IMG/VR virus record: IMGVR_UViG_3300044805_000052
Coordinates: 1-27,180 of that record
From: a virus
Taxonomy: Duplodnaviria > Caudoviricetes
Length of the DNA stretch: 27,180 nt
Direction: 5' to 3' (one strand)
A model generated the notes under the pieces. It worked only from the letters and a program-made list of their open reading frames with translations, made no database searches and was not told the DNA's origin. A program made the position numbers and the translations under genes. Each line of letters starts with the position of its first letter. Position 1 is the stretch's first letter. Below, one piece after another: positions 164 to 27,163 of the stretch.

Positions 164-349
164 ATGACTAACACCCGAGCCGTCTTCTTTCAAAAAGGCG
201 ATGAGCGCATCGTCATCTGGACAAATCACACACGCTGGACCGTCACCGATATGGTTGCTGGCGGCACAAAGCGATACACCAAACAATTAGCCACGGCATT
301 GGCAGCATCACTAATGGCTGAAGGCTACGAGGCAACCGTCCATGACTGA
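164..349 (+). CDS. hypothetical protein (61 aa)
   Basis: ATG 2 nt after the previous stop; the 3' end overlaps the next gene start. Confidence 0.7.
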   Translation: MTNTRAVFFQKGDERIVIWTNHTRWTVTDMVAGGTKRYTKQLATALAASLMAEGYEATVHD

Positions 350-677
350 CCCCATCACCCCACCGCCTGAGCTAGTACAGCAATGGGAAGAGCAGTTCCT
401 GGAAAGGCCAACCATTAACGGTTGTTTTATCCAGTCGTACATCGCTACCAAGGCGGCTCAATGGGGTGCCGACCAGGAGCTGGATGCGTGTATTGCATGG
501 CTGGTTCGCAACTACAACTATCCAGAAGCTGGCAACCCCCTCCGCGCTGCCCGCCGCCCCAAGCCACCGAGCTTGAAGGAGGAGGCACTTAAAGCCCTGG
601 AACGGATGCAAGACCAGTACCCGCACCTGGGAAACACTAAGACCATCCGCCGCGCCCTGGAGGCCCTCGATGACTAA
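342..677 (+). CDS. small modular phage protein, family A copy 1 (PITPPPELVQQW / AAQWGADQEL / RRPKPPSLKE)
   Basis: Coupled ORF; paralogous to 1199..1576. Confidence 0.85.
   Translation: MTDPITPPPELVQQWEEQFLERPTINGCFIQSYIATKAAQWGADQELDACIAWLVRNYNYPEAGNPLRAARRPKPPSLKEEALKALERMQDQYPHLGNTKTIRRALEALDD
459..484 (+). repeat. 26-bp exact direct repeat, second copy 1346..1371
   Basis: CAATGGGGTGCCGACCAGGAGCTGGA in both family A genes. Confidence 0.95.
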
Positions 678-706
678 GCAACACCGCGCCATGCCTGAGC
701 TGTGGG
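670..706 (+). repeat. 37-bp direct repeat (35/37 identical), second copy 1569..1605
   Basis: ATGACTAAGCAACACCGCGCCAyGCCTGAGCwGTGGG at both A-to-B gene junctions. Confidence 0.95.
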
Positions 707-996
707 CCGCCGCTGAAAAGTGGGGGGCTAACACTTTGGACATGGCGAACTGCCTCCTTGAACTCCGCGCCCGCATCGAGGCGTTGGAGGCTGCGCAGCA
801 GAAGGTCCGCTCTGCCCCTGAATCGCCATTGGTGGAGCGCGTCGCTGATGCCATCGCAGCACAAGCCACCTCTGCCGGCATCGTCAACGACCGCCCAGCC
901 GGCGCCGCGATCCTTGAGGTGGCGGCGTGGCTGCGTGAACAGGGCACCCCTGCAAGTGGCTGGGCCATGCGCCTTGAGCAGGAGGCAGGGCGATGA
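670..996 (+). CDS. small modular phage protein, family B copy 1 (MTKQHRA / CLLELRARIEALEAA)
   Basis: GGAGG RBS upstream, overlaps the previous stop; N-terminus paralogous to 1569..2144. Confidence 0.85.
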   Translation: MTKQHRAMPELWAAAEKWGANTLDMANCLLELRARIEALEAAQQKVRSAPESPLVERVADAIAAQATSAGIVNDRPAGAAILEVAAWLREQGTPASGWAMRLEQEAGR

Positions 997-1199
997 CACG
1001 CATCATCAACGGCGAGCGTCGTTATGGCGTTTGGGGTGGTTGCCCTAAAGGGAACCCTGAAGACCCTACTCATTGCATTAAAGAAGTTTGGCCATCTGAC
1101 AGTGCGTGGATTCCGTATCAATGCAGCCGCAAGCGCGGCCACGGCCCTGATGGGCTGTACTGCAAGCAGCACGCTAAAAAACACGACATGGAGGATTAA
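993..1199 (+). CDS. small Cys/His-rich, putative zinc-binding protein (68 aa)
   Basis: GGAGG plus ATGA overlap; C...QC-x12-CKQH pattern. Confidence 0.75.
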   Translation: MTRIINGERRYGVWGGCPKGNPEDPTHCIKEVWPSDSAWIPYQCSRKRGHGPDGLYCKQHAKKHDMED

Positions 1200-1576
1200 T
1201 GACTGACCAATCTTTCCCGATCACACCACCGACTGAACTGGTGCAACACTGGTTGTGCTCAAGCGACTACCTATGGGGTCCGCTTGAGCAGACGTCCATT
1301 ACCATCACGGCCAACCGGCTCCAGAACATTGCCACCCGCGCCGCCCAATGGGGTGCCGACCAGGAGCTGGAGGCATGCCATTGCGAGGTTAGCTTTTGGG
1401 GAGGCAAAGGTATGGCGGATAGACTTCAGGCCACCCGCCGCCCCACGCCGCCTAGCTTGAAGGAACAACTGTTACAAAAACTTGAGCACATCAGGGACGT
1501 AGCAGACAAGTATCAAGACACTCAAAACGCTATTGATGATCTTCGTGAAACCCTGGAGGACCTGCCAAATGACTAA
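1199..1576 (+). CDS. small modular phage protein, family A copy 2
   Basis: GGAGG plus TAATG overlap; shares four blocks with 342..677. Confidence 0.85.
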   Translation: MTDQSFPITPPTELVQHWLCSSDYLWGPLEQTSITITANRLQNIATRAAQWGADQELEACHCEVSFWGGKGMADRLQATRRPTPPSLKEQLLQKLEHIRDVADKYQDTQNAIDDLRETLEDLPND

Positions 1577-2144
1577 GCAACACCGCGCCACGCCTGAGCA
1601 GTGGGAAACCATTGAGCTGTACGCCGGCATCAGCGCTCTCTACTCCTGCATCATCGAACTCCGCGTTCGCATCGAGGCGCTAGATGCTGCGCATCCTCAC
1701 CAGGACAAGATGGACCGGTTGATTGCTATAGACCGAGACGACCCTAGCAACTCGCCGGTAGCGGCTGACACCTTCCGCGCCCTGTGCTCTGAGCTGGTTG
1801 AACTCAGCGCTCCAACAGATTCCATTTCCCAACTGGCTGAGCGTCTTCAAAAGTTGAATGAGTTGGCTACCCGCGCCCGCATCGCCCTAGCCCATCCCGA
1901 GCCGGTGGTGGTGCCGGTGGCGGTGAGTGATGCGCTAATTAAGGCCGAGTGCGCCCTGTCGGATGTTGCCGAGGGGGAACCGGAATGCGGCTGGGGCGAC
2001 CCAGCGCAATGGGTTGAGCAACGCTGCGCGGAAACCCTGGCGATCATCCGCCCGGTGATGCAGCTGCACAAAATCCGCACATCGGAGTGGCCGCCCCAGC
2101 CGATGCCCACACCCGCCAACAACACTAGGGATGCCAACCGATGA
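1569..2144 (+). CDS. chimeric modular protein: family B N-terminus fused to family C blocks (FRALCSEL / TRARIALAHPEP)
   Basis: Start moved to ATG 1569 (GGAGG upstream, same context as 670); internal DNA repeats shared with 2141..2452. Confidence 0.8.
   Translation: MTKQHRATPEQWETIELYAGISALYSCIIELRVRIEALDAAHPHQDKMDRLIAIDRDDPSNSPVAADTFRALCSELVELSAPTDSISQLAERLQKLNELATRARIALAHPEPVVVPVAVSDALIKAECALSDVAEGEPECGWGDPAQWVEQRCAETLAIIRPVMQLHKIRTSEWPPQPMPTPANNTRDANR
1774..1799 (+). repeat. 26-bp exact direct repeat, second copy 2154..2179
   Basis: TCCGCGCCCTGTGCTCTGAGCTGGTT. Confidence 0.95.
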
Positions 2145-2452
2145 GCACCACCCTCCGCGCCCTGTGCTCTGAGCTGGTTAAGGCCTGGGATGCCACGGCA
2201 GACTTTGACTTCAACGACTTCGGCCATGCAGCCGCTGACATTGTGACCCGCGCCTTCGCCGCCCTAGCCCAGTCCGAGCCGGCTGAGCTGACGGATGAGG
2301 AGATTCTGAGCTTGGCTGACGACTGCGGCTTTGAGGCGCAGGAGATCACAAACTGGGACGGGAAAAGTAGAACTGTTGATCACGGTTGGGAATGCACAGA
2401 CGCGCAGCTCCTGACCTTCGCCCGCGCCGTCGAGCTGGAGGGTTCTAACTAA
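2141..2452 (+). CDS. small modular phage protein, family C (LRALCSEL / LAQSEPAELTDEE / FARAVELEG)
   Basis: ATGA overlap; blocks shared with 1569..2144 and with the end of 2452..2883. Confidence 0.85.
   Translation: MSTTLRALCSELVKAWDATADFDFNDFGHAAADIVTRAFAALAQSEPAELTDEEILSLADDCGFEAQEITNWDGKSRTVDHGWECTDAQLLTFARAVELEGSN
2431..2442 (+). repeat. 12-bp direct repeat containing the RBS, second copy 2865..2876
   Basis: CGAGCTGGAGGG flanking the AT-rich gene; both copies preceded by CCCGCGCC. Confidence 0.85.
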
Positions 2453-2883
2453 TGTCACCTTGTTCATCCTGCATTCATTACCGAGTAGCTGTAGGTACTC
2501 TGCATCCCGTTGAAAGGTGGTGCGCTATTTCAGGAGAATGGCTAAGTGCCAGAGACGTATGGCACAATAACCCTGAAGCACACACCGGAGTTTGGGGAGT
2601 GAAAACAAACAACATCCCTGAGTGCAAGTTCACCATGTCCGCCCGAGAAGTTTGGGAGTACGACGAATGGCACGCTTCAAAAATAACCCTTTACTACAGG
2701 GAGAATCGTGGAGGGTATAAGGGTTTTCATGACGATCCTCGCAATTATTATTGGCTACATGCTCGTTATGAAGAACGAGAAACTGAATTAAACAATTGTA
2801 AAAGATTTTGGCCTGGTAACGATCTTGCACACTTTGTACAACGACAACCCCGCGCCATCGCCGCCGAGCTGGAGGGCCAATGA
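2452..2883 (+). CDS. AT-rich hypothetical protein with CxxCxH motif
   Basis: GGAGG plus TAATG coupling; ends in the array motif RAIAAELEGQ. Confidence 0.8.
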   Translation: MSPCSSCIHYRVAVGTLHPVERWCAISGEWLSARDVWHNNPEAHTGVWGVKTNNIPECKFTMSAREVWEYDEWHASKITLYYRENRGGYKGFHDDPRNYYWLHARYEERETELNNCKRFWPGNDLAHFVQRQPRAIAAELEGQ

Positions 2884-3257
2884 AACCTGCAATAGAGCGC
2901 GGTAAGAAATGTTACAACGCTTGTCTAACTGAAGAGCAAGTGCGCCTTGGCCGCATTTATGTAATGAAAGGCCCGGTTGGCACTTTGCCGCTATGCGCCA
3001 GACGCTGGGGCATTGCTACTCAGACGCTGCGCAATGCGGTGATTTACAAGAACTGGAAGCACATCCCGCCGCCTACACCAGAAGAGATCGAAAACACACC
3101 GCTGCCGCATTGGATTGATTCCATTGGTGCGCCACACCGCTCTCATTGCAGCATGTGCGTTCACTGGGAGCACAACTGCACCATGGGGATACCCGAGGGT
3201 GGCGGTTTTTTCGCTAAATCATGTGCGGCCTATGCCACCGCAAGCCTCGCGAATTAG
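2880..3257 (+). CDS. putative DNA-binding protein (helix-turn-helix plus C-terminal Cys4 cluster)
   Basis: N-terminus (LTEEQV...ARRWGIATQTLRNAV...NWKH) resembles the HTH found C-terminal in phage HNH proteins; C-terminal CSMCVHW..C...C. Confidence 0.65.
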   Translation: MKPAIERGKKCYNACLTEEQVRLGRIYVMKGPVGTLPLCARRWGIATQTLRNAVIYKNWKHIPPPTPEEIENTPLPHWIDSIGAPHRSHCSMCVHWEHNCTMGIPEGGGFFAKSCAAYATASLAN

Positions 3258-3419
3258 CCAGCGGATCTGCGACTTCTGGCTGGCTTCTAGCTCCGCTAAC
3301 AGCAGCGCGTATTCCAGCAAGCCATTCCAATCACCCTTGGCGTGCAATGCTCGTAATGCACTTGCATTGGCTGCGCCATGGAACTGTGCTTCCATTGTAT
3401 GAACTAATGGATTCACCAT
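3219..3419 (-). CDS. hypothetical protein (66 aa from ATG 3419; 71 aa from 3434)
   Basis: Fills the otherwise empty gap 3258-3417; helical protein-like sequence (GDWNGLLEYALLLAELEASQKSQIRWL). Confidence 0.6.
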   Translation of the reverse strand: MVNPLVHTMEAQFHGAANASALRALHAKGDWNGLLEYALLLAELEASQKSQIRWLIREACGGIGRT

Positions 3420-4323
3420 GTCATCATCATTCAACAGCTACCTTAACGAGATTGCGCGTTATCCACTGCTCACGGTGGACCAAGAGATCCAATACGGCAG
3501 ACGTATCGCCAAGATGCGTGAGCTGCAAGAACTGGAGCGCCCGCTGACAAATGCAGAGCAGCGACTAGTGCGTAGCGGTCAACGCGCCCGCGAGCGGTTT
3601 ATGCAATGCAACCTACAGCTAGTGGTGCATGTAGCAAAGAAGTACGAAAACCGCAAACGCAAATCACTTGAAATTATGGATCTCATCCAGGAGGGCAATA
3701 TCGGCTTAGCGCGCGCGGTCGAGCTGTTTGATTCATCACGCGGTTACAAGTTTTCAACCTATGCCTACTGGTGGATAAAACAAGGCATCCAGCGCGCATT
3801 ATCGCAAAATGATGCAATGATCAGATTACCGACTGGCTTGCATGAGCTTTTGGCTAAGGTTGCTCGCACTACATCAGAGCTTAGCCATCGCATCGGTCGC
3901 ACACCAACACTGGCAGAAATAGCAGATCATATTGATGTTGATGTAAATGCAATCCACGATGCACTACGCCGCAGCCATACGGTGTACAGCTTAGATTCAA
4001 TAATGGCAGGCAGCGAAACTTTGACGTTAATTGATATGATTGCTGACCCGCAGTCATTGGTTGATATAGACGAGCTTAGCATTAGCCATCAAGCGCAAGA
4101 GATGCTTGAGTTAATTGATAAGTATTTAGACGACCGCTCAAAGTTTATAGTGCGCAGCCGTAGGCTACAGCAGCCACTTACTTGGGCTGAGATCTCAGCA
4201 AAGGTTGGTGTTGCGCCATCACGGGTGCAGCAACTTGAACGCATGGCGCTGTTTAGATTGAGGATGATGCTCAACAAAGGAAAAGAACTTAATGACACAC
4301 CGCTCGGCAACTACAACCATTGA
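3418..4323 (+). CDS. phage-encoded RpoD/sigma-70 family RNA polymerase sigma factor (group 2-like, no region 1.1)
   Basis: Region 1.2 YLNEIARYPLLT; region 2 NLQLVVHVAKKY and DLIQEGNIGLARAVELFDSSRGYKFSTYAYWWIKQGIQRAL; region 3 IRLP...PTLAEIA; C-terminal region 4 HTH. Confidence 0.95.
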   Translation: MSSSFNSYLNEIARYPLLTVDQEIQYGRRIAKMRELQELERPLTNAEQRLVRSGQRARERFMQCNLQLVVHVAKKYENRKRKSLEIMDLIQEGNIGLARAVELFDSSRGYKFSTYAYWWIKQGIQRALSQNDAMIRLPTGLHELLAKVARTTSELSHRIGRTPTLAEIADHIDVDVNAIHDALRRSHTVYSLDSIMAGSETLTLIDMIADPQSLVDIDELSISHQAQEMLELIDKYLDDRSKFIVRSRRLQQPLTWAEISAKVGVAPSRVQQLERMALFRLRMMLNKGKELNDTPLGNYNH

Positions 4324-4468
4324 ACATATCGGCGGCATATGGCGAGTATGCGCTAATGGGATATGTAAAGAGCACCAGCAAGAATGGCAGGCAAAGGTGT
4401 TTTATCATCAGATGATCAATAATCCCAACGCACACGCGGACGCCCAGCGCGAATGCCAAGATGGATGA
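4292..4468 (+). CDS. small hypothetical protein (58 aa, below the ORF-track cutoff)
   Basis: Hand translation MTHRSATTTIEHIGGIWRVCANGICKEHQQEWQAKVFYHQMINNPNAHADAQRECQDG*; fills the gap between sigma and the endolysin. Confidence 0.55.
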   Translation: MTHRSATTTIEHIGGIWRVCANGICKEHQQEWQAKVFYHQMINNPNAHADAQRECQDG

Positions 4469-5465
4469 AGCCTTTAGTGGCGCCGTAACCTAAAGAGAAA
4501 GGCCACTTAGCATCGCACCAATCTTGCACGGCCTTTACGGGTACTCCGCTGATAAAAAAGTCAATGGCACCGCATCCTGGTTTATAAAGATGCTCGCTAT
4601 TGCTGGCACCACCAACTGCTTGGTTCACATTTTCTGGCCGGTTACCGCTGGTAATAATGATTGGCTTGTTACCGAATTGAGTTCTGGCTTTCTCGATAAA
4701 AACGCACAATTCAGTGCAGATGTCACATTGAGACTGGTTAGCAAAACGCCTGCGCTCTTCATTGACGCAAACCTCACCGTAAGTGATGTGCGGGGTAATA
4801 AGCGTAGTGAACGGCGACGCAGGGGTAAAACGCGGCGCTGATTGCTTGCCAATAAATAGCTCTACTTCAGCAGCTCGACGGCGTGTAAGCCCTAGCAGAG
4901 GTTTGCCGTTAGCTTTATCCCACTTAGGCAGCTCTTGCGGGATTACAACCTGCGCAGACTCGCCTGCATTAAGCCGGCGGCGTAGCGTGGATTCTTCTAC
5001 AGCGCCACCACCTACGTTGTACAGCCAGCTAAGCAATGCTGCTTGCTGGTTGCCGCCATAGTTCTTAGCCGCTGGGATAAGCGTATAAAGCTGCGTCGCA
5101 AAACCCTCTACGCTGTCACGGAGCATAGTGTCAGCAGTGACCTGGCTGATCTTATCGCCTTGTCTGACGGGACGCCCGTCGATTTGGGTATTACCCCAGC
5201 CAATGGTCCACACCCCTGCCGGGCAGGCATATGCGACCAGATGGCACCCTTCAAACTCTTTGATGATGCGCAGCGCTGGCGCTAGATAAATAGGATCTGG
5301 TTGCTTGCCAGCTTGGCTCCATGTCTTAAACCACGGCTGATCCCTATTAAAGAGATCTGGCACTCGCTTTAATAATTCCGCTTCTAATTCAACGACTGCC
5401 GCCATTTGATGCGGTGTGCCTTGGCGGTAATAACGGAACAGATCGCTAGGTTTAATCTGACTCAT
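4416..5465 (-). CDS. endolysin: N-terminal ~55-aa domain + GH24 phage lysozyme + peptidase M15A domain
   Basis: FEGCHLVAYACPAGVWTIGWG and GLTRRRAAE (GH24); ITSGNR...N..VGGASNSEH...AID...FIHLG (M15 Zn peptidase). Confidence 0.92.
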   Translation of the reverse strand: MSQIKPSDLFRYYRQGTPHQMAAVVELEAELLKRVPDLFNRDQPWFKTWSQAGKQPDPIYLAPALRIIKEFEGCHLVAYACPAGVWTIGWGNTQIDGRPVRQGDKISQVTADTMLRDSVEGFATQLYTLIPAAKNYGGNQQAALLSWLYNVGGGAVEESTLRRRLNAGESAQVVIPQELPKWDKANGKPLLGLTRRRAAEVELFIGKQSAPRFTPASPFTTLITPHITYGEVCVNEERRRFANQSQCDICTELCVFIEKARTQFGNKPIIITSGNRPENVNQAVGGASNSEHLYKPGCGAIDFFISGVPVKAVQDWCDAKWPFSLGYGATKGFIHLGIRAGRPRVRWDY

Positions 5466-15264: not shown

Positions 15265-18086
15265 TATGTGAGCAGTCCTCCAGGGCGTTTCTGTTTGACC
15301 AGCTCTTGCTGGATAGCAGCAGCGATCAATCGACCGAGCTGCTTGCCTTCTTGTTCATCGCCTTCTACCTTACTACCGCTGGCGTCTACGTTCACGACCA
15401 CGTTGACGCCGCCGCCGCCACCACCGGATGCTGTCACGCCTAACTTGCCGCCGGGGCCACGGCTAAGTGGCATGATTGCCTCGGGGCCAGCTTCGCCCAT
15501 CAACCCGATGCCTTTAGCAAACGGGAACAACGTCGGGCTGTTGACGATGCCGCCCTTGGCAAAGGGGATGATGCCGTTGGCTCCGTATGCGTTGCCGTTG
15601 GCATTTTTGCCAAATGCTTTTGCTAGGAACGAAAACACGCCCTTGCCATCAGTGCCACCTAAAGCGCCCAACGCTTCTGCGATAGCTTGCATTATTAACA
15701 TCTTGGCAATTGTCTTGAGCAGGTCGGCGCCAATCTTGCGCAATGAAACTCCTAAGCTTTCAGTGCCATCAATCATTGAATCAATGGCACTGCCAAATGC
15801 ACCTGCTGTTGCCGATGCCATATCAGTAAATAGTTGATTGTTTTCAACTGTTGCGTTCTTTAGCTTTTCAGTTTCAAACAACAGTTGCCTGATTTGATTG
15901 ATCTGCTCTTCTGTAAGGTTTAGTTTTTTAATTTGCTCCGATACTAGCTGATCCTCAATTTGCATCTCGGCGCGCTTAAGCGGATCTTTTTCTTTTGCTA
16001 ATGCAAATTCAAGCCGTGCGTTTTGTAAAATAGCTTGATGGTCTTTCGCTCGCTGCTGCTCCAAGCCTGCAAGATCAAATCCTAACTTACCTGATACTAT
16101 TGCAGCATCAATAGCAAGCTTGTTTAATACATTTTTCTTTTCTAGTGCTGGCATTTCTTTGTTGGCGACAATATCTGCGCGTTGTGATGCAATCTGCGCT
16201 AGCTCTTTTTGTGCATTACGCGCAAGCACTAGCTGATCGTTACCCGCTAATTGAGCCTGTTGCAATCTGCCTTCAATAGCAAAAATATCTTGCGCTAGCG
16301 TTAGCTGCACTTGCGATGCTCTGATCTGCTCAGCAACCCGCTTGGCAGCATTTGCGGCTTCATCGCTGGCGGCCTTTGGCTTGCCGCCAGTAGGGCCTGT
16401 AGCAGTGGTGCCGCCTACCGTTGCACCTATTGGGATGTTAAGTGCATTGGCGGCTGGAGTTTTCCTTGACTTGGCTTTCTTTGGCAAAGGCGCACCATAT
16501 CTCCCGTAGATTCCAGTAGCTTGCGCATTTGGCGCTGGCGCTCGACTAGCTGCGCTGCCAGCAGCACCAGCAGCACCAGTAAGCATCGATACAGCATTGC
16601 CGCTAAAGATATTGCGAATCGGAGCAGGCAGGTTAGACCACCAATTGTTAATAATGGCACTTAACCCATTAAACCCTGCAGCACCTTGAGATACAAGGCC
16701 GTTGAAGAAATCATTAAACGCATTGCTAGATACAGCAGCACTTGTTTCTGCTGCATTTGATGTGTCCTTAAATGCGCCTTGAAATAATTCTCTTATAAAT
16801 TTAGCAATAGGGCTAAGCTCAGGCGGCAGCTTTTCATATGCTTTTTGAATATTGGCAGCAGAATTTCTTGCGTCATCTGCCATGCCTTCAACGGCGCTCT
16901 TAAAATCGCTGGCTACAACTCCGCCGATGTTATTTACAAAGTTTCGGAATGTTCTATTGGTGTCGTATACAGCTTTACTAAGAAGTCCAAGCCCGATAAT
17001 TGCTGCAGCAGTCCATCCGGCGCCTGGAATGGCGAGCATTGCCAACTTAAGATTGCCAAATACAGCACTTACGCCTGCAACCTTTGGCGCTAATGCTGCC
17101 GCATTATTTGCGTATAACGCCCATGCTGATGATCCTGCTGTTGTAGCAACGCTTAGCTTGCTTGATTGTATTGTTAAAGCAGCTAGTGCTGCTTGCAATC
17201 CAATCGTGATTTGAATTGCTTTTTGCAGCAGCAAGAATTGCGCAATTAGCTTAACAGTTTCGCCTGTTGCATTTTTGACCGGATCTGGCAATGCTGCTAT
17301 CGTGCCAACTAATGATGTAAGATCTTTAATTAAAGGCGTGACTACTGGCAACAATTCATTGCCGACCGCAACGCTTAAATCATCAACGGCGTTTTGCAGA
17401 TCTTTGAATTTTTGAGTGTCGGAATTTTGCACCAATGCGGCGATTTTGCCTGCGCCTTCTGATTCGATGCGCTTGAGTGCATTAATAACAATGTCGGCAC
17501 TTAATTTACCATCTGAAGCAAACTGCTTAAGATCTTTGGCTGCAATGCCTGTCTCTTTGCTAACAGCAACAAGTAGGCCTGGAACTTGTTCTGCAATGCT
17601 CCTAAATTCGTCGCCCTGCAGACGGCCTGACCCAAGTGCTTGGCCTAATTGCAGAAATGCTGCTGACGCGCCTTCAGCACTAACGCCAGACAATCGAGCA
17701 ATTGTATTGAAGCCGTTAAATGTAGATTGAATATCTTTAAGTGAAACGCCAAGCGGCCTTAGTCTTCCATAAATATCAGCAACGCCTGTCGCCGCTTCGC
17801 GATTGCTTAGGCCGAATTGTTTAGCTGCTTTTGCTGCAAATTGCTGGGCTTGCGTATATTCTCCATATTCGCTAGTCAGCAGCTTTAATCGAGTTTGCAA
17901 ATCATTAAAAGATGCAGCGGCTTTTAATGTTTGCGCGGCAATGCTGGCGACCCCAAGGCCAGCTATAGCTGACTGCAGCGCACCAAATGCCCGCTGCGTC
18001 GATTGCGCCTGCGTCTGCACCTGCCGCAGCTTGCTAACAGCACCGCTGCTGTCAACATTAATGGCGACATTAGCGACAACCGACAC
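15264..18086 (-). CDS. tail tape measure protein
   Basis: 940 aa, Ala-rich; QL.QALGSGRLQGDEFRSI.EQ.P tape-measure motif; C-terminal FAKGG...GEAGPEAI.PL. Confidence 0.95.
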   Translation of the reverse strand: MSVVANVAINVDSSGAVSKLRQVQTQAQSTQRAFGALQSAIAGLGVASIAAQTLKAAASFNDLQTRLKLLTSEYGEYTQAQQFAAKAAKQFGLSNREAATGVADIYGRLRPLGVSLKDIQSTFNGFNTIARLSGVSAEGASAAFLQLGQALGSGRLQGDEFRSIAEQVPGLLVAVSKETGIAAKDLKQFASDGKLSADIVINALKRIESEGAGKIAALVQNSDTQKFKDLQNAVDDLSVAVGNELLPVVTPLIKDLTSLVGTIAALPDPVKNATGETVKLIAQFLLLQKAIQITIGLQAALAALTIQSSKLSVATTAGSSAWALYANNAAALAPKVAGVSAVFGNLKLAMLAIPGAGWTAAAIIGLGLLSKAVYDTNRTFRNFVNNIGGVVASDFKSAVEGMADDARNSAANIQKAYEKLPPELSPIAKFIRELFQGAFKDTSNAAETSAAVSSNAFNDFFNGLVSQGAAGFNGLSAIINNWWSNLPAPIRNIFSGNAVSMLTGAAGAAGSAASRAPAPNAQATGIYGRYGAPLPKKAKSRKTPAANALNIPIGATVGGTTATGPTGGKPKAASDEAANAAKRVAEQIRASQVQLTLAQDIFAIEGRLQQAQLAGNDQLVLARNAQKELAQIASQRADIVANKEMPALEKKNVLNKLAIDAAIVSGKLGFDLAGLEQQRAKDHQAILQNARLEFALAKEKDPLKRAEMQIEDQLVSEQIKKLNLTEEQINQIRQLLFETEKLKNATVENNQLFTDMASATAGAFGSAIDSMIDGTESLGVSLRKIGADLLKTIAKMLIMQAIAEALGALGGTDGKGVFSFLAKAFGKNANGNAYGANGIIPFAKGGIVNSPTLFPFAKGIGLMGEAGPEAIMPLSRGPGGKLGVTASGGGGGGVNVVVNVDASGSKVEGDEQEGKQLGRLIAAAIQQELVKQKRPGGLLT

Positions 18087-24596: not shown

Positions 24597-24881
24597 ATGC
24601 CTGAGATTACGGTTCAAACGGAAGAGGGCCCTGTAAAGCTGTCTCACTTAGGACGAGAGCTTGAGCTGGTGGCCGGTCAAGGCGCTAATGCGAAAAGATG
24701 GTGGCAAATGTTTAGGATTCGACCACCTATTGGCGTTGATGGTCATTTGCTATTCCCCGAAGATTGCTCATTACGAGACGTGATAGAAGCTATTGGAATG
24801 GAGTTAAGCAAGGAAGAAGGCGAAAGGTTGCTCAAAATTCTGCCTCCATTGCCGGCAATTCCAGCAAATGCTACTCCTTAA
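24597..24881 (+). CDS. candidate immunity protein for the MuF C-terminal domain (94 aa)
   Basis: Fills the gap after the MuF stop on the opposite strand; shares TTAA stop codons with MuF; inside the repeat-bounded cassette. Confidence 0.65.
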   Translation: MPEITVQTEEGPVKLSHLGRELELVAGQGANAKRWWQMFRIRPPIGVDGHLLFPEDCSLRDVIEAIGMELSKEEGERLLKILPPLPAIPANATP

Positions 24882-27163
24882 GGCAGTACATCAAAAAAAC
24901 CAACTACTGCTCGGAATAAATCAGGGTGCTTTTGGTAAAGGCCCGCCATGCTATCGGGAGTAGCAAATTGCTCCATAGCCATTGTCCAGACTTCAGTAGA
25001 TATATATCCTTTATCATTTGTGTATTGTTTGCCCATGTACGGTGACAAGTAATTATCGGCCCAAGCAGTTTCTTGAGCTTGATATCCGCCAAATGGCACC
25101 ATGTCATTGAGCTTGTATCTTGGCTTTCCTTCTAGCATATTTTCAACAACTTGTTTTTGCAAGCTAGGATGATTCGCTGAATACGCTTTGTTTTTAGACC
25201 ATTCCCTAGCCCATCGCCCTAGCCATGGGCGCTGTGCCTCTACAGTATGACCAATTTCATGAAACAATACAGCTTTACCTCGTTCCCCAATTGGTATGTG
25301 GACTAATCCTTCGCCTACAACGTTAAACCCACGAACATCGCCAATATCTTGTTGAATTAGTTTTACAGCAGGTGCCCATTGTGTTCCTTGGCTAGGCTTC
25401 AGTCCTTCGCCTTTGAACATACGCGCATATTCTTGCGCATCAGCAAGCATTCGTTTTTTATTTTTGGCCGCTTCAATTAAACTGTTGCCATTATCCAAAA
25501 ATGTTAGGTTTGAATTATTAGCGGTAAGCAAATCCGCTTCTGCTTTGCTTAACCCTCGGCGAATCATTGACGCTTTTATTTTCTTAGATGCGCTAACCAT
25601 TGACTGCTGCCCGCGTTGCGCTCGCACATACGAACCCGTTAATGTAGATTCAATTTTTTTAAGCAATGCATTCCGCTCTCGCAAGCTCATAGTAGTATCG
25701 GCAAGCACTTGTTTTTTCCGTGCCAATAGTTGTGGCAGCACGCGTTTATATCTTTCCACAACAGCTCGGCCGCCATCCATCCCCTGCCCATATTGCTTGA
25801 TTATTGCAGCTCCCGCATTATCCATTTGTTGCCCTTTAATGCGCCATTCAGGCGTTGGTTCAATCCTTGCTACTGGTTGAGCTTGTCGTTTTAATTTTGG
25901 TGTTGGATCTTGCGGTTGCTTGTTTGTAGAACTAGGCGGATTGGGTTGTTTGGTTTTTACAGGTCCATAGCGTTTGCGTAATTGCTCCAAGGTTAGCTCA
26001 GAGCCATCGTCCCGAACCAGCTTGGCCATTGCATCCTTGGCGCCGTACTTATCGGCCAGTTTGTTGAAGTATGCAACCTTGCCAGGGCCTAGCGCATCAG
26101 CTTGCACGCTGCGTGGTTGCTTTGCTAACCACTCGCCATAGCTTTGATTGATTGGCACCTGGCCATCCTTGCTGGCCCGTGTTGCCGTAGTTGATGGCGG
26201 CAGGATGTCTGGGTCGATAATCGGCACTGTTGTCGAGCGGCAGTTGAAGTGCTGCGGCGGCATCGGACCTTTGCCATACTCAAACTCACGGCCATCCAAT
26301 GCAGCGCACCTAGCACTGGTCCTAGTGTCAAGCGTGGCGACGTAGCGGTACTTCTTGGTGATGTCTTGGTTGGCTTCATATACCTGCTGGCTGGCGGTAT
26401 TGGCTACTTGGTTGATGCTGGTGCGTACTAGCGTGATGATCTGATTGTCAGCTACGGCTGTCGCTTGCCCGCCTGCTGCTACCAGTTGCCGAACGGTCTT
26501 TGCTTCCTCGCCAAATTGCAAGTTGCCAATCAACCGCTTAGCGATGTCGGGTGTGGTTTCACCTGTCAGCAGCCCCTGCCGCACCACCTGGCTAAACCGC
26601 TCGGCTTGGTCTACGGCAAGACCGCGAAATGCCTTGGTGATGACCTCACCATTGGGCAGCGTGATAGTGGCACCCTTGGCAGCGGTCAAGTTAAACACAC
26701 CAGTGCCAGCTTGACGTGCTAATGCTTCCGCGCCTTCTACTGCTGCAAACAGGTCATCGCTCAGCGCCACTACGTTGAGCTGTGTCGGGTCAGTGGTGAC
26801 CACCGACTGCGCAAACTGCGGGCTGATCTCAACGGTGCGCACTGCATCACGGCTGCCGGCAGGTAGCGCCTTGCGCAGTTCTTCAGTGACAAACTCAGAT
26901 TGCAGCTCCGCTAAGCCTTGCAGCTCAGTTGCGGTTAGCTCGGTTGCGTCACCTGCCCACCCGGCTAGCGACTCCTTAAGTTGTGCCAATATGCCGCGCA
27001 ACCTAGCAGCCTTAACTGGTGCGGCTAGATCATCAATGGTGCGTAGCTGGTTGACGCTATCAATGATGATGTCGTTATATGCATTAATGACACGCCGCGC
27101 CACGCTATTGCTATAGCGGTTAAGGTCTATTGCATTGCGATATAGCGACTCTGGTGTGCTCAT
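24878..27163 (-). CDS. MuF / SPP1 gp7-family minor head protein with C-terminal HExxH zinc metallopeptidase (polymorphic toxin-like) extension
   Basis: YVATLDTRTS..CAALDG...PPQHFNCRS (MuF); Pro/Lys/Gln linker after aa ~401; LFHEIGH (H635-H639) and TEVWTMAME (E724). Confidence 0.9.
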   Translation of the reverse strand: MSTPESLYRNAIDLNRYSNSVARRVINAYNDIIIDSVNQLRTIDDLAAPVKAARLRGILAQLKESLAGWAGDATELTATELQGLAELQSEFVTEELRKALPAGSRDAVRTVEISPQFAQSVVTTDPTQLNVVALSDDLFAAVEGAEALARQAGTGVFNLTAAKGATITLPNGEVITKAFRGLAVDQAERFSQVVRQGLLTGETTPDIAKRLIGNLQFGEEAKTVRQLVAAGGQATAVADNQIITLVRTSINQVANTASQQVYEANQDITKKYRYVATLDTRTSARCAALDGREFEYGKGPMPPQHFNCRSTTVPIIDPDILPPSTTATRASKDGQVPINQSYGEWLAKQPRSVQADALGPGKVAYFNKLADKYGAKDAMAKLVRDDGSELTLEQLRKRYGPVKTKQPNPPSSTNKQPQDPTPKLKRQAQPVARIEPTPEWRIKGQQMDNAGAAIIKQYGQGMDGGRAVVERYKRVLPQLLARKKQVLADTTMSLRERNALLKKIESTLTGSYVRAQRGQQSMVSASKKIKASMIRRGLSKAEADLLTANNSNLTFLDNGNSLIEAAKNKKRMLADAQEYARMFKGEGLKPSQGTQWAPAVKLIQQDIGDVRGFNVVGEGLVHIPIGERGKAVLFHEIGHTVEAQRPWLGRWAREWSKNKAYSANHPSLQKQVVENMLEGKPRYKLNDMVPFGGYQAQETAWADNYLSPYMGKQYTNDKGYISTEVWTMAMEQFATPDSMAGLYQKHPDLFRAVVGFFDVLP

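Follow-up and report, generated by a model that had tools for sequence, protein, structure and literature searches.

What produces a run of small phage genes in which near-identical DNA blocks alternate with segments that cannot be aligned to one another? The question is raised by IMG/VR virus record IMGVR_UViG_3300044805_000052, of which we analyzed positions 1 to 27,180 (hereafter the window, a single contig of 27,180 nucleotides (nt) representing a partial genome). The window is part of a siphovirus of cyanobacteria, with lambda-like tail genes, an endolysin and an RpoD-type sigma factor, and the genes in question form an array at 342-2883 composed largely of members of three families, designated A, B and C. 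The initial annotation had interpreted the blocks as microhomology anchors for recombination that swaps parts of genes within and between phages. The data presented below support the interpretation of the blocks as recombination anchors, and we consider it probable that the array samples a common pool of small cyanophage proteins, the segments of which are mixed nearly freely by homologous recombination in the blocks of co-infecting phages.

All six block pairs in the initial annotation were reproduced with the same identities: 459-484 with 1346-1371 (26/26 nt), 670-706 with 1569-1605 (35/37 nt), 760-783 with 1656-1679 (22/24 nt), 1774-1799 with 2154-2179 (26/26 nt), 1869-1905 with 2246-2282 (31/37 nt) and 2431-2442 with 2865-2876 (12/12 nt). 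The longest exact repeat was 26 nt in the real sequence compared to a maximum of 16 nt in 300 dinucleotide shuffles of 342-2883. Exact repeats of 12 nt were attained by 70 of the 300 shuffles, so the 12-mer pair alone is at chance level and counts only through its in-frame extension to 20/24 nt and the equal gene ending found in relatives. Two additional family A pairs, blocks a1 and a3 (Table 1), had gone unnoticed, and the first 26/26 run proved to be the best stretch of a 51-nt block with 41/51 identity. Where both copies use degenerate codons to encode one residue, the codons agree at 8/14 positions within this block, and at 8/8, 9/10, 8/8 and 8/8 positions in four B and C blocks. The blocks of the three families have no sequence in common.

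The relatives of A1 and B1 indicate how the segments are combined. A list of 120 matches to A1, in which some rows were duplicated from two sources, left 118 after removal of A1 itself and one match that could not be segmented; because the list was ordered by likeness to A1, it is enriched for segment 1. Among these 118 best matches, 102 share only segment 1 with A1, 8 only segment 2, 2 only segment 3, 4 both segments 1 and 2, and 2 none, and not one shares all three. Segment 1 of A1, present in 106 of the listed matches, occurs alongside 54 types of segment 2 and 51 types of segment 3. Similarly, 90 of 113 segmentable B1 matches (5/118 were not segmentable) share the middle part only, and this part, found in 104 matches, is accompanied by 32 front types and 34 tail types. 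One protein, P0061, combines the first segment of A1 with the third segment of A2. Segment sharing extends to cultured phages: one segment of S-CBS2 (91% amino acid (aa) identity) and one of S-RIP1 (88%) recur in genes that differ in the other two; for S-H1 there was only a 71% match.

To quantify reassortment, 307 profile hits in 233 loci, together with the window, were reduced to 207 unique segmentable A genes, with alleles defined at 80% nt identity. These genes carry 129, 127 and 126 alleles of segments 1, 2 and 3 in 205 combinations, and the Chao1 estimates (381, 322 and 296 alleles, respectively) imply about 300-380 alleles per segment and some 3 x 10^7 possible combinations. Among pairs with the same segment 1 (n = 158), 146 differ in segment 2 and 12 share it (permutation mean 1.4); segment 3 is common to 4 of 182 pairs sharing segment 2 (permutation mean 1.3), and segments 1 and 3 are co-shared by 9 pairs (permutation mean 1.1). 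Co-shared segments are thus few, yet above the permuted values, indicating that linkage is mostly, but not wholly, broken. Fixed gene order and collinear variable segments, the pattern that the initial annotation had set against its own proposal, were not found, as six kinds of gene lie 3' of an A gene (223 cases) and the segments reassort among relatives.

When the array was compared with 332 loci, the closest DNA switched at blocks along its length (Table 1). As judged from these alignments, the array is a patchwork of about ten apparent donors with joints in the blocks. The block design holds for the A, B and C genes but not for the entire array as first described, since 993-1199 and 2452-2883 are passengers that contain no A, B or C block save the terminal block of the latter. 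The 68-aa passenger at 993-1199 occupies the same position in L098, L102 and L110, where the A gene that comes next carries different variable segments, and the 61-aa gene upstream of A1 moves together with the front of A1 in L002, a contig bearing T7-type markers. Gene D belongs to a conserved, ordinary family lacking variable segments (32 homologues, 58-88% identity).

Table 1. Genes, blocks and closest loci of the array, with two further genes of the window.
Feature	Position	Strand	Remarks
61-aa passenger gene	164-349	+	Upstream of A1; 94% nt to L002 over 164-495
Gene A1	342-677	+	Family A (PHROG 32006), 111 aa; four blocks, three variable segments, predicted five helices
Block a1 of A1	354-386	+	Partner 1220-1252, 26/33 nt
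Block a2 of A1	441-491	+	Partner 1328-1378, 41/51 nt; contains the 26/26 run
Block a3 of A1	540-590	+	Partner 1424-1474, 35/51 nt
Block a4 (A1 end) overlapping block b1 (B1 start)	642-706	+	b1 partner 1569-1605, 35/37 nt
Gene B1	670-996	+	Family B, 108 aa; block/variable design like A, predicted five helices
Block b2 of B1	754-795	+	Partner 1650-1691, 34/42 nt
68-aa passenger gene	993-1199	+	Between B and A genes
Gene A2	1199-1576	+	Family A, 125 aa; no variable segment in common with A1
Gene B2	1569-2144	+	191 aa; B-gene front fused in frame to a C gene, plus tail; blocks b1, b2, c1 (1773-1799), c2 (1869-1904)
Gene C2	2141-2452	+	Family C, 103 aa; c1 2153-2179, c2 2246-2281, terminal block d 2420-2443
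Gene D	2452-2883	+	143 aa, passenger; ends in block d 2854-2877
Closest locus L002	164-495		94% nt
Closest locus L004	462-580		93% nt
Closest locus L181	771-935		91% nt
Closest locus L098	973-1237		88% nt; around the 68-aa gene
Closest locus L157	1265-1374		89% nt
Closest locus L296	1435-1793		89% nt; donor-like for B2
Closest locus L312	1772-1904		84% nt; donor-like for B2
Closest locus L329	1872-2128		95% nt; donor-like for B2
Closest locus L319	2154-2302		91% nt; C2
Closest locus L322	2274-2428		99% nt; C2
Endolysin	4416-5465	-	Two catalytic domains: phage lysozyme and peptidase M15
MuF-like minor head protein	24878-27163	-	761 aa, long C-terminal extension

Crossovers were located using pairs of A genes that share only the segment to the left (n = 108 and 131) or only the segment to the right (n = 131 and 110) of blocks a2 and a3. 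The excess identity over background dropped from ~0.9 to ~0 across both blocks, over 30-50 nt and from both sides, in a noisy decay without a single step. This gradual decay of linkage fits homologous exchange and not a fixed att-like site. Crossovers therefore fall in the blocks, as initially proposed, but are spread over 30-50 nt and not confined to points of microhomology. Silent sites within the blocks are also more alike than expected, with a fourfold-site identity of 0.67 (20,223 pairs without a shared segment). The codon use of the pooled blocks predicts 0.46, and conserved columns in ten clusters of neighbouring core genes give 0.31-0.53. The suppression of silent-site divergence that the initial annotation expected is thus present relative to codon use, although the core-gene control is not clean and the blocks are homogenised rather than frozen: their proportion of synonymous differences (pS) is 0.43 between random genes, little above the 0.29-0.37 found within alleles. 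Taken together, the blocks look as though they have been made alike by exchange. GC content at third codon positions is 0.76-0.80 in blocks in all three locus-GC bands, compared to 0.53-0.57 in segments, and counts of promoters and terminators in blocks are at chance level.

The pool from which the segments are drawn is large. Both A1 and A2 match the full-length profile of PHROG 32006, a family of unknown function (E 4.9e-26 and 1.2e-21, respectively); relatives of A1 form at least 7,996 clusters at 90% identity (7,996 of 8,000 scored candidates matched), and a family A profile search returned 2,517 clusters at 50%. A relative of A1 is encoded in 570 of 612 matched viral stretches, A genes occupy many genomic contexts, and long A forms with repeated block runs, as well as A/C fusions, were found. 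The B1 search matched 613 of 676 candidates, and no homology exists between the A and B profiles. Family members occur in the cultured phages S-CBS2, S-H1 and S-RIP1. In a species-genome collection there were 12 A-type loci, all on metagenome-assembled contigs with mixed labels and none titled as a cultured isolate, which are likely to be misbinned phage DNA.

The same segments also cross between phage types. Among 249 loci scanned for marker genes (some overlapping on one contig, with flanks of 1.5-8 kb), 35 have T7-type markers, including a gp2.5-like gene, and 37 have RecE-, RecT- or Bet-like genes, while none has both. Nineteen segment matches of at least 80% nt identity connect T7-type with RecE/RecT-type contigs, four of them at 100%, and the first segment of A1 is present in one T7-type, one RecE/RecT-type and a third contig. 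By comparison, a segment is common to only 1 of 50 paralogue pairs from the same locus, so exchange occurs mainly between genomes; of the swaps within and between phages proposed in the initial annotation, it is chiefly the latter that are borne out.

Segments would be exchanged by homologous recombination within the 27-51 nt GC-rich coding blocks of co-infecting phages, possibly through phage annealing proteins (RecT, Bet, gp2.5) or host RecA. Crossovers in two blocks would swap one segment, crossovers in end blocks would move whole genes or passengers, and unequal crossovers would generate fusions such as B2. In the predicted arrangement, the blocks make up an invariant helical frame, and the acidic segments exposed helix-loop-helix turns. 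In the structural models of A1 (predicted local distance difference test (pLDDT) 85, predicted template modelling score (pTM) 0.56) and B1 (pLDDT 77, pTM 0.46), each with five helices, the variable segments do lie at helix-loop-helix turns. The reading frame is kept in the spacing from a1 to a2 in 174/174 cases and from a2 to a3 in 205/207, and the ratio of nonsynonymous to synonymous differences within alleles of segments 1, 2 and 3 is 0.22, 0.13 and 0.13 (62, 50 and 59 equal-length pairs), demonstrating that the segment alleles are under purifying selection. Because the frame is kept and this ratio is low, the proteins are likely real. Segments of all three families are acidic (aspartate plus glutamate 0.19-0.20, lysine plus arginine 0.06-0.07, compared to 0.12 and 0.11 in core genes), and net charge is negative in 98% of the 207 A genes. 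An Ocr-type DNA mimic was considered and rejected, as family A has too few acidic residues (core median 16% acidic and 11% basic, maximum 23% acidic) compared to Ocr, which has 34 acidic and 6 basic of 116 residues (PMC4872106). Fold searches gave no clear match.

On the question of function, for which the initial annotation proposed putative host takeover or anti-defence, we are evenly divided as to whether the putative binding of segment turns to variable host proteins (defence or transcription components), with rare combinations favoured, takes place. A fuller version, in which the array belongs to an antibody-like repertoire common to unrelated cyanophage lineages, with helical scaffolds carrying three loop cassettes, blocks kept alike for reshuffling, and products that are putative allele-specific binders of host defence or regulatory proteins, is possible but doubtful. 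The main rival of allele-specific binding holds that the shuffling is real but is a by-product, the proteins having one generic or almost no job, the segments being foldable, interchangeable spacers, and the blocks being homogenised by recombination. The apparent tolerance of nearly any combination (205 among 207 genes), the duplicated block runs and cross-family fusions, the many contexts of A genes and the failure to find a function all fit this account, but strong purifying selection on each allele, the persistence of hundreds of unrelated alleles per slot (Chao1 about 300-380) and an acidic bias common to three non-homologous families do not, and we regard it as rather unlikely. Several results weigh against recombination in blocks as the source of the array or against a role for its proteins. 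The median exact run between unrelated genes across a block is 16-17 nt (21 nt in about a third), below the minimal pairing segment of 23-27 bp given for Red-beta in PMC3945230, implying that only some gene pairs are easy substrates. Adjacent segments are linked above chance (12 pairs compared to 1.4), core-gene pairs at 85-95% protein identity (few pairs) have silent-site identities of 0.51-0.80 compared to 0.70 for blocks, no recombinase was found in the window, a single contig of a partial genome, and no exchange has been seen in the act. Additionally, the A1 and B1 models are of moderate confidence only; Pfam, NCBIfam and PADLOC contain no family for A, B, C or D; and the array proteins yielded no function, no related fold and no match in a defence library. 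Foldseek with the A1 model gave no PDB match at E 0.001 and only uncharacterised viral proteins in BFVD, VIA gave a best Z of 5.5 with histone-fold and CsoR-like rows, the usual range for helical proteins, and the ESM Atlas returned unnamed viral clusters only for A1, and its leads for C2 stayed below 0.9.

Accounts that dispense with homologous recombination fare worse. The blocks are conserved at the DNA level with position-specific codons, and a few loci have tyrosine integrases nearby (clusters of 3 and 2), as might be expected of an integron-like or invertase-like system cutting at fixed block sites, or of a reverse-transcriptase retroelement writing the variation. We consider such systems very unlikely. 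An integron or other site-specific cassette is weakened by the gradual decay of linkage across a2 and a3, without a step, and the blocks of the three families lack a common sequence and are not structured RNA (mean folding z -0.5 to +0.4, no Rfam match). A diversity-generating retroelement is likewise disfavoured, as the alleles are unrelated segments under purifying selection and not point-mutated versions of one another; neither reverse transcriptase nor integrase was found in the window, a partial genome, as initially noted, and no reverse transcriptase was present among 34 scanned proteins covering the commonest neighbours. Chimeric assembly is more improbable still. Most of the sequences are metagenomic, lake-sample contigs break and branch at blocks, and the window's own arrangement is covered piecewise by contigs of four public runs, none of which holds it whole, with other contigs of those samples joining and departing from it at blocks. 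However, exact runs across blocks are short in most pairs (of 2,000 pairs of unrelated genes, 7-8% have runs of at least 31 nt, and none has one of 55 nt), which argues against chimeras, the cultured phages share segments as well, and single contigs span A1 (1-699) and A2 (968-1590) in run X1, possibly the source sample, and 760-1315 and 1636-3500 in run X9. Finally, because the blocks fall on predicted helices, selection on the protein would by itself maintain them in old duplicated genes whose loops diverged independently, but identical segments with dozens of unrelated partners and across phage types make this the least credible account, with hardly any probability left to it.

Homologous exchange in the blocks invites comparison with known systems. 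In the gp38 tail-fibre adhesins of T2/T6-type phages, too, conserved motifs separate hypervariable segments, and recombination at or close to the motifs exchanges these segments, drawn from a population-wide library (Trojet et al. 2011; PMC3157838). The array genes differ in being small, predicted all-helical and outside the virion module, in forming paralogue arrays from three unrelated families with cross-family fusions, and in crossing between podovirus-type and siphovirus-type phages; they lack homology to gp38 and its glycine-rich motifs, have no Pfam or PHROG tail match, and the locus lies opposite the tail genes. In the PeSL cassettes of T4-type phages, small non-essential genes are similarly shuffled by crossovers at short repeated elements, but these are intergenic promoter/stem-loop elements moving whole genes, whereas the array blocks are coding, in frame and move gene parts (Arbiol et al. 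2010; PMC2839356). The Ea22/DUF551 early genes of lambdoid phages are likewise small, non-structural and mosaic with acidic variable domains, yet there the whole C-terminal domain is swapped (PMC10834534), while in the array three internal segments of 10-30 residues reassort; no Ead_Ea22 or DUF551 profile matched the window genes or three C-family relatives at E 0.01. Relaxed homologous recombination by Rad52-like phage recombinases acts on short diverged homology and offers a likely enzyme route, although its product is general mosaicism rather than genes of a fixed block-and-segment design (De Paepe et al. 2014; PMC3945230). That study detected no exchange of virulent with temperate coliphages; the array alleles, in contrast, link T7-type and RecE/RecT-type contigs. 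The array operates in the manner of gp38 adhesin shuffling, except that the genes are not tail genes, and is a member of none of the gp38, PeSL or Ea22 systems. No description of family A or of a segment-swapping system of this kind was found in the literature searched, which did not extend to subscription papers and supplements, and mosaicism in proteins of unknown function was outside the scope of Smug et al. (PMC10684548).

Several further observations concern the array and its surroundings. At 1617-1631, a contig of run X9 carries a variant of the first variable segment of B2 with a 9-nt insertion and four changes, and at position 679, another contig in runs X1 and X7 runs from the A-gene end block straight into a C-type gene start. 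A small conserved gene, whose front is of a diverged A type and whose constant tail is particular to it, is often found beside A and B genes (L007 4353-4643, L010, L011, L045, L048, L065, L071). C genes often end in an extra Trp/Cys/His-rich module (L125, L141, L167, L181), which we take to resemble DUF551, with no Pfam or PHROG match obtained. The array genes overlap tightly and lie on the plus strand ahead of the sigma factor, opposite to the virion and tail genes. The end of an upstream open reading frame (3-157) matches DNA ahead of the arrays in L002, L037, L098, L109 and L173 at 77-86% nt, possibly marking where the array is anchored on its left. Since relatives of the array occur in Synechococcus phages S-CBS2, S-H1 and the T7-like S-RIP1, the host, on this sequence kinship, is likely a picocyanobacterium. 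Freshwater metagenomes are the best holders of the window sequence among public runs, and three RNA runs contain 0.10-0.36 of its sequence words. Elsewhere in the window, the C-terminal extension of the MuF-like protein contains an HExxH-type motif, suggestive of fusion to a metallopeptidase of the kind seen in polyvalent proteins of phages. A 33-nt repeat between the tape-measure and minor head genes (17709-17741 and 25632-25663) is weak (85%, E 0.05) and probably due to chance.

Segment shuffling between conserved motifs is already known for tail adhesins; here it operates in a cyanophage family that ranks among the most diverse without annotation. The system connects phage types that are otherwise set apart by their replication genes, and leaves, in nature, a record of recombination among unrelated lake phages that can be counted. 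With members in cultured S-CBS2, S-H1 and S-RIP1, it also opens a way to test what many small 'hypothetical' genes of phages do. If it is true that the segments set host targets, it would constitute a recombination-driven binder library that operates without a retroelement or integrase.

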